DNA of 7,341 nt from IMG/VR virus record IMGVR_UViG_2654587792_000035, positions 1-7,341 of that record; one strand, written 5' to 3'. The DNA is from a virus. Taxonomy: Duplodnaviria; Heunggongvirae; Uroviricota; Caudoviricetes. Under the pieces are notes generated by a model. That model was not told the DNA's origin. It ran no database searches and saw nothing but the letters and a program-made list of their open reading frames with translations. Positions 2,539 through 2,920 of the stretch are shown one piece after another; position 1 is the first letter of the stretch, and the number at the start of each line of letters is the position of its first letter. A program made the translations under genes and the position numbers.

Positions 2539-2620
2539 CGGTGTGTTTCAGTATACACAAAAAAAGAAATACAAAAAGCCTTGACGTGTGTTTCATGCGC
2601 TCATAACATGAAACACACCG
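2539..2620. promoter_or_regulatory. Divergent promoter/operator region with three copies of the 12-bp motif (G)GTGTGTTTCA(TG): 2539-2550 (+), 2586-2597 (+), 2607-2618 (inverted)
   Basis: Copies at 2586-2597 and 2607-2618 form a perfect 12-bp inverted repeat with a 9-bp spacer that overlaps the rightward promoter. The copy at 2539-2550 abuts a leftward -10 (TATACT on the - strand, 2550-2555) in front of the RHH gene. This is the layout expected for a dimeric repressor controlling both divergent promoters. Confidence 0.55.
2581..2609 (+). promoter_or_regulatory. Candidate sigma70 early promoter: TTGACG (2581-2586), 17-bp spacer, TAACAT (2604-2609); predicted transcription start near 2616
   Basis: The -35 matches 5 of 6 consensus positions and the -10 matches 4 of 6 including the conserved first T, second A and last T, with optimal 17-bp spacing. 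It is overlapped by the 12-bp palindromic operator. Confidence 0.5.
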
Positions 2621-2646
2621 AAAGGATTGTTGAAATACAAAGAGCA

Positions 2647-2680
2647 ACGCCCCGCAGTGCCGGAAACACATACGGGGCGT
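2647..2680 (+). promoter_or_regulatory. GC-rich hairpin in the roughly 100-nt leader of the early operon (stem ACGCCCCG / CGGGGCGU, 18-nt loop); possible regulatory or processed leader RNA
   Basis: Perfect 8-bp stem at 2647-2654 and 2673-2680 with no following U-tract, so not a canonical terminator. The loop contains GAAACACA, a near copy of the operator half-site. It sits between the predicted start site and the Icd-like gene RBS. Confidence 0.35.
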
Positions 2681-2716
2681 CTAACCACCAACGATAACGA
2701 GAGTATCGAGGCAGCT

Positions 2717-2920
2717 ATGAGAAATCATACCATACACCCGCAAGGGCGGGACTCGTACAACCTGAATAAATACATCTGGCGTTTTATCGCCCTGAGCACG
2801 GCACAACCGCGCGTGATTACCATTGAGGCCAGCAGCGAACAGGAAGCACGCCAGCAATCCCCGGCTGGCTGCGTGATGGTATTCGCCGCCCGTATTCGTC
2901 AGGGGGGGGGCCATGCCTGA
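2717..2920 (+). CDS. Small early protein (67 aa); tentatively Icd-like (host cell division inhibitor family)
   Basis: ATG at 2717 with GAGG 5 nt upstream, inside track ORF 2627..2920. Product MRNHTIHPQGRDSYNLNKYIWRFIALSTAQPRVITIEASSEQEARQQSPAGCVMVFAARIRQGGGHA. The family assignment is from memory of Icd-like proteins in P4-like prophages and is not verified. Its last codons contain a G9 tract and it overlaps the next gene by 8 nt. Confidence 0.55.
   Translation: MRNHTIHPQGRDSYNLNKYIWRFIALSTAQPRVITIEASSEQEARQQSPAGCVMVFAARIRQGGGHA
2902..2910. repeat. Homopolymeric G9 tract spanning the end of the Icd-like gene and the RBS/start region of the next gene
   Basis: Nine consecutive G at 2902-2910, read directly. 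Loss of one G puts the upstream reading frame in phase with the downstream gene and removes the TGA at 2918-2920 from the frame. Confidence 0.9.

Follow-up and report, generated by a model that had tools for sequence, protein, structure and literature searches.

A conserved minus-strand RNA structure and a predicted SymR-like antisense RNA across the icd leader of an Escherichia coli phage satellite

The control region of the icd operon

The stretch of DNA analysed here, referred to as the window, comprises the 7,341 nucleotides (nt) at positions 1 to 7,341 of IMG/VR virus record IMGVR_UViG_2654587792_000035 and carries a small phage satellite of Escherichia coli. Its 200-bp divergent control region, which separates a YlcI/YnfO-family gene from an Icd-like gene (icd below), contains a hairpin that had been read as part of a structured leader, possibly holding an immunity RNA of the C4/CI type; this earlier reading is termed the original prediction. 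The features of the region are as follows, with the leader and the antisense RNA being predictions.

2214-2519, minus strand: YlcI/YnfO-family gene, presumed repressor, divergent from icd (NF041551, 63.2 bits; RefSeq annotation of the identical D5 element)
2538-2621: operator-like repeats on both sides of the sense -10 hexamer, with GTGTGTTTCA at 2541-2550 and 2586-2595 and inverted copies at 2609-2621
2581-2609, plus strand: sense sigma-70-like promoter site of the icd operon, TTGACG-17-TAACAT (-35 at 2581-2586, -10 at 2604-2609)
2616-2716, plus strand: predicted 5' untranslated leader of the icd-operon mRNA, about 100 nt, judged from the promoter position and the sequence
2633-2719, minus strand: predicted SymR-like cis-antisense small RNA of about 80 nt, with its 5' end placed at 2718-2716 and its 3' end at about 2636-2633
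2717-2920, plus strand: Icd-like gene, 67 amino acids (aa), first of the rightward operon (NCBIfam NF033153, 69.6 bits, E 1.7e-19)

The sequence features on which the original prediction was built were all confirmed. The position of the sense promoter puts the transcript start near 2616 and, with the icd ATG at 2717-2719, gives the leader of roughly 100 nt that had been proposed; a Shine-Dalgarno sequence, GAGG, lies at 2708-2711. Two relatives, L002 and L277, have TTGACG-17-TAGATT in the same layout, again 5' of the hairpin. The gene that follows the leader is indeed Icd-like, and the hairpin is a perfect 8-bp G+C-rich inverted repeat (ACGCCCCG at 2647-2654 and CGGGGCGT at 2673-2680, with 18 nt between the arms), in the loop of which the operator-like sequence GAAACACA is present at 2663-2670. 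This octamer recurs at 2610-2617 and complements the repeated GTGTGTTTCA; the repeats themselves would be bound by the divergent YlcI/YnfO-family protein.

The relatives used for comparison came from several sources. A search with an alignment of Icd-like proteins yielded 160 IMG/VR loci and one Edwardsiella locus, the latter being the only locus returned by a profile scan of genome contigs with the same alignment; a search for the leader motif TAACCACCAACGATA-N5-9-TATCGAGG yielded 120 metagenome contigs; and plasmid records added an Arsenophonus locus and an E. coli O145 replicon. A query spanning 2200-2950, which includes the conserved stretch described below, matched 1363 of the 5426 complete E. 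coli genomes. No match to this stretch was found in the phage collection.

The conserved structure lies on the minus strand

The stable structure that had been ascribed to the sense transcript was not upheld, as 2616-2720 folds at -24.6 kcal/mol with a z-score of -1.4, and 16 of 200 shuffled sequences were as good. In the hairpin itself, only 8 + 3 pairs form when it is read as plus-strand RNA. Taken as its reverse complement, the same interval folds at -37.7 kcal/mol (z-score -4.25), a stability reached by none of 200 shuffles. The asymmetry extends through the relatives: 61 of 63 distinct hairpin regions are more stable on the minus strand, with means of -23.2 kcal/mol against -17.1 kcal/mol for the plus strand, and across the 63 hairpin variants the minus strand keeps an unbroken stem of 15-17 pairs, which on the plus strand is interrupted by A·C mismatches.

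An alignment of 43 distinct minus-strand sequences, designated A2, has a consensus of two stem-loops and a tail. Paired positions are occupied by pairing bases in 98.3% of 1112 cells when read on the minus strand, compared with 82.8% standard pairs when read on the plus strand, and 175 cells are G·U on the minus strand as against three on the plus strand. Eight pairs have changed on both sides (52 cells), and the covariation score of 0.217, compared with 0.103 in shuffled alignments, was reached by none of 500 shuffles; in controls where the partner positions were slid along the alignment, pairing fell to between 34% and 53% of cells. Taken together, the conservation of pairs, the G·U asymmetry and the folding energies imply a selected RNA structure, and on this comparative evidence the selected structure of the icd leader is on the minus strand.

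A covariance model, R1, was built from the alignment of 43 distinct relatives and matches the minus strand of the window at 2633-2719 with 94.3 bits. The parts of the structure, and the promoter-like features adjoining it, are listed below.

2682-2717, minus strand: SL1, the 5' stem-loop, with outer stem UAGCUGCC/GGUGGUUA, inner stem CGAUA/UAUCG and a variable 7-nt loop at 2703-2697
2646-2681, minus strand: SL2, the 3' stem-loop, corresponding in reverse complement to the reported hairpin (2647-2680, plus strand) but lengthened by G·U and A-U pairs to a total of about 16 pairs, approximately -24 kcal/mol
2633-2645, minus strand: terminator-like T-rich tail 3' of SL2, GCTCTTTGTATTT
2732-2724, minus strand: candidate antisense promoter, extended -10 TGgTATGAT, within icd codons 3-6
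2737-2750: palindrome CCCGC-AAGG-GCGGG, in icd codons 7-12 and in the -35 zone of the candidate antisense promoter

SL1 holds the anti-Shine-Dalgarno sequence CCUC (2711-2708). Its 13 pairs are formed in 99.3% of cells and include invariant G·U pairs that the plus strand would have as A·C; neither the stem nor the linker varies, while the loop differs among relatives. In SL2, A2 has 13 pairs, formed in 97.3% of cells, eight of which show compensatory changes. Over 62 variants whose flanks are unrelated, the 12 nt that follow the SL2 stem average 5.8 T on the minus strand; on the plus strand, where an invariant CTAACCACCAAC with a single T comes after the stem, the mean is 1.0.

Both the apex of SL2 and the 7-nt loop of SL1 are hypervariable, and they reassort independently of each other and of the flanking sequence: the 104 unique RNAs include 43 distinct SL2 regions and many SL1 loops. 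Breakpoints of homology between E. coli genomes fall at approximately 2639-2650 and 2677. Such loop hypervariability would be the pattern expected of the recognition loops of antisense RNAs. In the two pairs of co-resident elements that were found, the members of each pair differ in both loops, although two pairs are too few to count and the observation is anecdotal.

A candidate antisense promoter within a portable cassette

The candidate antisense promoter overlaps the start of icd. In 159 unique sequences, the TG, TAT and AT positions of TGnTATnAT are 99-100% conserved, and the only variable positions are the 'n' (93%) and the fourth position of the hexamer (92%), changes at which result in TATAAT or TATTAT. 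Within icd codons 1-7 the third positions never vary, whilst first or second positions of codons 2, 4, 5 and 6 do, a pattern opposite, judged from these alignments, to the one expected if the constraint were on coding alone. The extended -10 is kept in the divergent L213, and in Arsenophonus a TATAGT hexamer occupies the same place, even though the protein of the open reading frame (ORF) downstream has diverged beyond recognition. A start 5-7 nt past the -10 would fall at 2718-2716, giving an RNA of about 80 nt that includes CCUC and reaches the start codon. The simple promoter scanner that was used is blind to promoters dependent on an extended -10, and its output counts neither for nor against this one. 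The palindrome at 2737-2750 is 97-100% conserved at all three codon positions and is identical in Edwardsiella; it might be a protein-binding site.

The Icd-like domain, as defined by NCBIfam, consists of residues 19-62, and the first 18 icd codons, which lie outside it, are part of the conserved stretch and recur fused to other ORFs; 2633-2770 therefore acts as a self-contained cassette. It keeps its position in 270 loci and is joined directly to the Icd-like domain in 263 of them. The cassette also occurs outside E. coli, in Edwardsiella and Arsenophonus. The Edwardsiella protein is only 53% identical to that of the window, yet the nucleotide sequence from the hairpin through codon 12 is near-identical, the first 36 nt of the ORF included, and the hairpin stem carries compensatory changes.

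The most distant example is on the Arsenophonus nasoniae plasmid pArsFIN15 (L279, 1478-1780), where R1 matches the minus strand with 75 bits. The cassette there stands ahead of an ORF of about 70 aa (ATG at 1561) that has no annotation; the plasmid is phage-like, with terminase and VapE genes, and the C terminus of the ORF, WAGRIP, faintly recalls the FAARIR of Icd-like proteins.

Comparison with SymR

The closest analogue of this arrangement is SymR, the antitoxin of the E. coli symE/symR type I pair, which overlaps the ribosome-binding site and start codon of symE and blocks its translation (PMC4147584). Both RNAs lie opposite the 5' end of their target, are approximately 77-85 nt long, consist of two stem-loops and are complementary to the Shine-Dalgarno sequence and the start codon, with the promoter, in the window a candidate predicted from sequence, in the first codons of the target ORF. 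SymR and the satellite RNAs also have in common GUGRUUAG in the linker and GUGUU..GCAC at the apex. The targets differ: in the satellite it is an Icd-like protein heading the replication operon, in SymR an AbrB-fold toxin, SymE. The satellite's sense promoter has element-specific operators, where symE has a LexA box, and the apex and loop are hypervariable in the satellite RNA, unlike in SymR.

The covariance models find one another's families. The Rfam model of SymR (RF01809) matches five relatives of the window (L277, L071, L024, L103 and L002) on the minus strand over positions 1-77 of its 77, each match ending 1 nt before the ATG, with scores of 30.3-34.9 bits and an E-value of 4e-5 in a small search. 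Reciprocally, R1 finds the genuine E. coli SymR with 29.4 bits (E about 1.5e-6, on a rough calibration), the anti-start CAU being aligned. We claim that the architecture is the same as that of SymR; homology, which would have these two reciprocal matches as its only evidence, is no more than a possibility.

At the E. coli symE/symR locus (L278, 601-690), the symE leader has the order apex GUGUUGGCGCAC, linker UGUGAUUAG, second hairpin, ATG, which is the order found in the satellite leader. One possibility is that symE/symR derived from a mobile-element cassette.

The small cis-antisense sar RNA of the phage P22 immI region is made from a promoter inside an early operon. The predicted RNA of the window resembles sar in being small, cis-antisense and encoded from within an early operon; it differs in its position in the operon and has no sequence or model similarity to it, no Rfam family other than SymR having matched.

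Literature searches turned up no previous account of this RNA; the icd mentioned in a preprint on a 'Pas sRNA' is the housekeeping gene only.

Proposed function of the cassette

We consider it somewhat more probable than otherwise that 2633-2770 is a cassette which carries a promoter and, expressed from it, a SymR-like cis-antisense RNA, about 80 nt long, over the icd ribosome-binding site. The icd promoter, flanked by the operator repeats for the divergent YlcI-like protein, would produce an mRNA with a leader of about 100 nt; about 100 bp away, the convergent antisense promoter, with its extended -10 in icd codons 3-6, would give rise to a small RNA starting at 2718-2716 and running leftwards. 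This RNA would be perfectly complementary to the last 80 or so nt of the icd leader, including GAGG, up to the AUG. Pairing would occlude both the Shine-Dalgarno sequence and the AUG and so block ribosome binding to the first cistron, and with the loss of icd translation the whole replication operon would probably be depressed, because the downstream ORFs overlap and their translation is probably coupled (the icd stop codon, 2918-2920, with the ATG at 2913, and 3539 with 3521). The two convergent promoters may also interfere with each other. SL2 is predicted to halt antisense transcription before the operator region, and the variable SL1 loop and SL2 apex would serve as recognition determinants, such that different satellites could carry versions that do not cross-react.

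The production of this RNA, its ends and its action are deduced rather than observed, and several points weigh against the proposal. The antisense RNA is a prediction from sequence, and the annotation of E. coli D5 has no RNA gene in the corresponding place. The sample consists mostly of closely related E. coli elements, so the conservation counts given above do not represent independent events. The SL1 stems are near-invariant and thus without covariation support. The antisense promoter has no recognisable -35, its extended -10 also codes for the conserved residues N-H-T, and the TG is missing from Arsenophonus and, along with the palindrome, from the recombinant L268. The tail is T-rich in the E. 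coli variants but not in Arsenophonus or SymR, and the T tract is interrupted; the identification of SL2 as an intrinsic terminator is uncertain for these reasons. As to the likeness to SymR, RF01809 gave no match to the window's own variant at E<=10, its matches in the relatives are far under the gathering score of 61, and a comparison of the SymR primary sequence with the 104 variants scored 10 against a null of 6.7 +/- 1.9 with a maximum of 13, which is not significant.

Alternative explanations

The alternative that survives best, though we regard it as unlikely, is that the minus-strand hairpin is a mere terminator or insulator against stray or long antisense transcription from inside the operon, which it would halt short of the divergent promoter and operator region, with no dedicated small RNA. 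A minus-strand structure followed by a T-rich tail is what this would require, and a minus-strand promoter-like site at 2980-2953 could supply the transcription. It leaves unexplained, however, the conserved SL1, the hypervariability of the apex, the full-length SymR-like layout beginning at the start codon, and the fact that the -10-like element and the first 12-18 codons are conserved as nucleotide sequence, in Edwardsiella and Arsenophonus as well.

Somewhat less likely again is that the antisense promoter is a second promoter of the YlcI/YnfO gene (2519-2214), comparable to lambda PRE, with SL2 as a leader attenuator and repressor mRNA as the main output. The promoter, SL1, SL2, the operator region and ylcI do follow one another in that order on the minus strand, and the imperfect U tract makes some read-through plausible. 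Against this, the cassette moves with icd and not with the repressor, many of the E. coli matches starting at approximately 2639-2650 with other modules upstream, and one locus, L280, has no listed upstream YlcI gene, albeit in a plasmid whose annotation is incomplete. The length and stability of the SL2 stem (16 pairs, about -24 kcal/mol) speak for an efficient stop, and SymR, the nearest analogue, is a discrete RNA.

There is a slim chance that the hairpin functions as DNA, as an operator or palindrome for the repressor, with the GAAACACA half-site permitting looping with the promoter operators. The identity of the octamer at 2663-2670 with 2610-2617, complementary to an operator half-site, is improbable by chance for one specific 8-mer, and the original prediction had remarked on the operator-like motif in the loop. 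The motif is not general, however, being a peculiarity of the window variant. When 42 hairpin cores were compared with their own upstream regions, several 7-mers in common with the operator repeats were found only in the window type; most of the 41 other types share no k-mers with their own operators, and a few share one isolated 7-mer. Operator-in-loop sharing was rejected as a general feature on these grounds. On the minus strand the position of GAAACACA is part of the upper stem of SL2, and related variants have GAACACA or CAACACA there, again within the stem. A DNA palindrome would, moreover, not give an asymmetry of 175 to 3 between G·U and A·C.

That the hairpin works within the sense mRNA, stabilising its 5' end or binding a protein, seems no better founded. 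The hairpin does lie inside the predicted leader, and plus-strand RNA can form its 8-bp G+C stem, but A·C mismatches interrupt the plus-strand stems of many variants, and in all but two of the 63 variants it is the minus strand that is the more stable.

Least credible of all is the proposal that the plus-strand hairpin is, or holds, a C4/CI-type RNA processed from the sense transcript and with targets near the icd ribosome-binding site, as in the immI region of P1 and P7 and in P4 cI: an Icd-like gene does follow the leader, and related elements do carry C4, c4-a1b1 and isrK-like modules beside icd-like genes, but the plus-strand fold is no better than shuffles, its pairs are standard in only 82.8% of cells, no complementary target was found in the original reading, and no Rfam model of this kind matches.

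The last point was established by scanning the whole window and 2560-2800, on either strand, in which C4 (RF01695; gathering score 45 bits, clan CL00128), c4-a1b1 (RF03163) and isrK gave no match at E<=10. As a positive control, the same scan found C4 at 72.3-76.4 bits in four relatives, L277, L009, L044 and L133, elsewhere in the element; as true C4 is detected in relatives, the sensitivity of the scan is not at fault, and on these searches a C4/CI RNA is excluded from the window. Of the original prediction, the general idea of a layer of RNA control in addition to the protein operator is retained on comparative evidence, whereas a sense-strand RNA of C4/CI type processed from the leader is not. 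The likeness to C4/CI consists in RNA control of an icd-type first cistron of a mobile element, exerted at the ribosome-binding site and presumably polar. C4/CI RNAs are excised from the sense transcript (by RNase P in P1) and have separate target sites, repeats (a1b1/a2b2 or seqA/seqC) that flank the RNA upstream of the icd ribosome-binding site; the predicted RNA of the window, by contrast, lies on the opposite strand, has perfect complementarity in cis and bears no similarity to the C4 model.

The genuine C4 modules of the relatives, with their c4-a1b1 targets and an isrK-like RNA scoring up to 80 bits, are at 3162-3360 in L277 and 1735-1939 in L009, L044 and L133. The L277 module is placed between the 18-codon cassette and a second icd-like gene, whose annotation is that of a pseudo 'ash family protein'; in the other three it is 3' of the first icd-like gene. 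These satellites would hold both a SymR-like RNA and a C4 RNA.

Implications for satellite silencing

How Gram-negative phage-inducible islands are silenced is an unsettled matter, and the founding paper on the Gram-negative phage-inducible chromosomal islands states that the presence of a repressor in these elements is unclear. If the proposed antisense RNA exists, its position over the first early gene would make it an added, post-transcriptional brake on satellites, and it would account for the mosaic breakpoints around the hairpin. The many variants of the apex suggest a specificity code. SymR, so far a lone chromosomal oddity, would then gain a large family in mobile elements. A wider view, which we advance tentatively and think doubtful as a whole, is that the 140-bp cassette serves as a transferable antisense lock of the SymR type, set on the first gene in the replication operons of satellites; that its hypervariable SL1 loop and SL2 apex define orthogonal specificity classes, amounting to an RNA code of immunity or incompatibility through which several satellites could coexist in one E. 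coli; and that the chromosomal symE/symR is a domesticated copy.

Other features of the element

The remaining annotated genes of the window are listed below; those from 2913 onwards belong to the rightward operon headed by icd.

1-1239: integrase gene
1572-1868: AlpA-type regulator gene
2913-3233, plus strand: hypothetical gene
3240-3539, plus strand: DUF4222 gene
3521-5353, plus strand: D5/primase-helicase gene
5884-6306, plus strand: SSB gene
6485-7057, plus strand: DUF1441/TerS-like gene

The window is 99.9% identical to the element that E. coli D5 (NZ_CP010145) carries at 219.5-229.4 kb, between cspD and clpS, bar a deletion of about 2.46 kb, and is a deletion derivative of it. Relative to the D5 element, this deletion removes a gene encoding a fusion of a ClpP-like prohead protease and a major capsid protein. 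When 6339-6418 of the window is compared with 13218-15675 of L001, an 80-nt stretch aligns at both sides of the junction, which suggests that the deletion arose by recombination from repeat to repeat.

Just 3' of the primase-helicase gene, at 5347-5599, are approximately eleven copies of GGTGAACAG(T) in both orientations, which are probably iterons of the satellite replication origin. After the SSB gene, a G+C hairpin followed by a run of T at 6318-6346 gave a weak sroD-like match (19.5 bits) and is probably an ordinary intrinsic terminator.

Databases disagree as to the Icd-like protein, which PHROGs 6196 and 1743 label 'transcriptional repressor' and NCBIfam 'host cell division inhibitor Icd-like'; the description as a cell-division inhibitor is a matter of annotation only. 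The C-terminal residues of the protein differ among relatives. Towards the 3' end of its gene, a run of nine G at 2902-2910, before both the ATG of the next gene (2913) and the icd stop codon (2918-2920), could be a hotspot for slippage or sequencing error.

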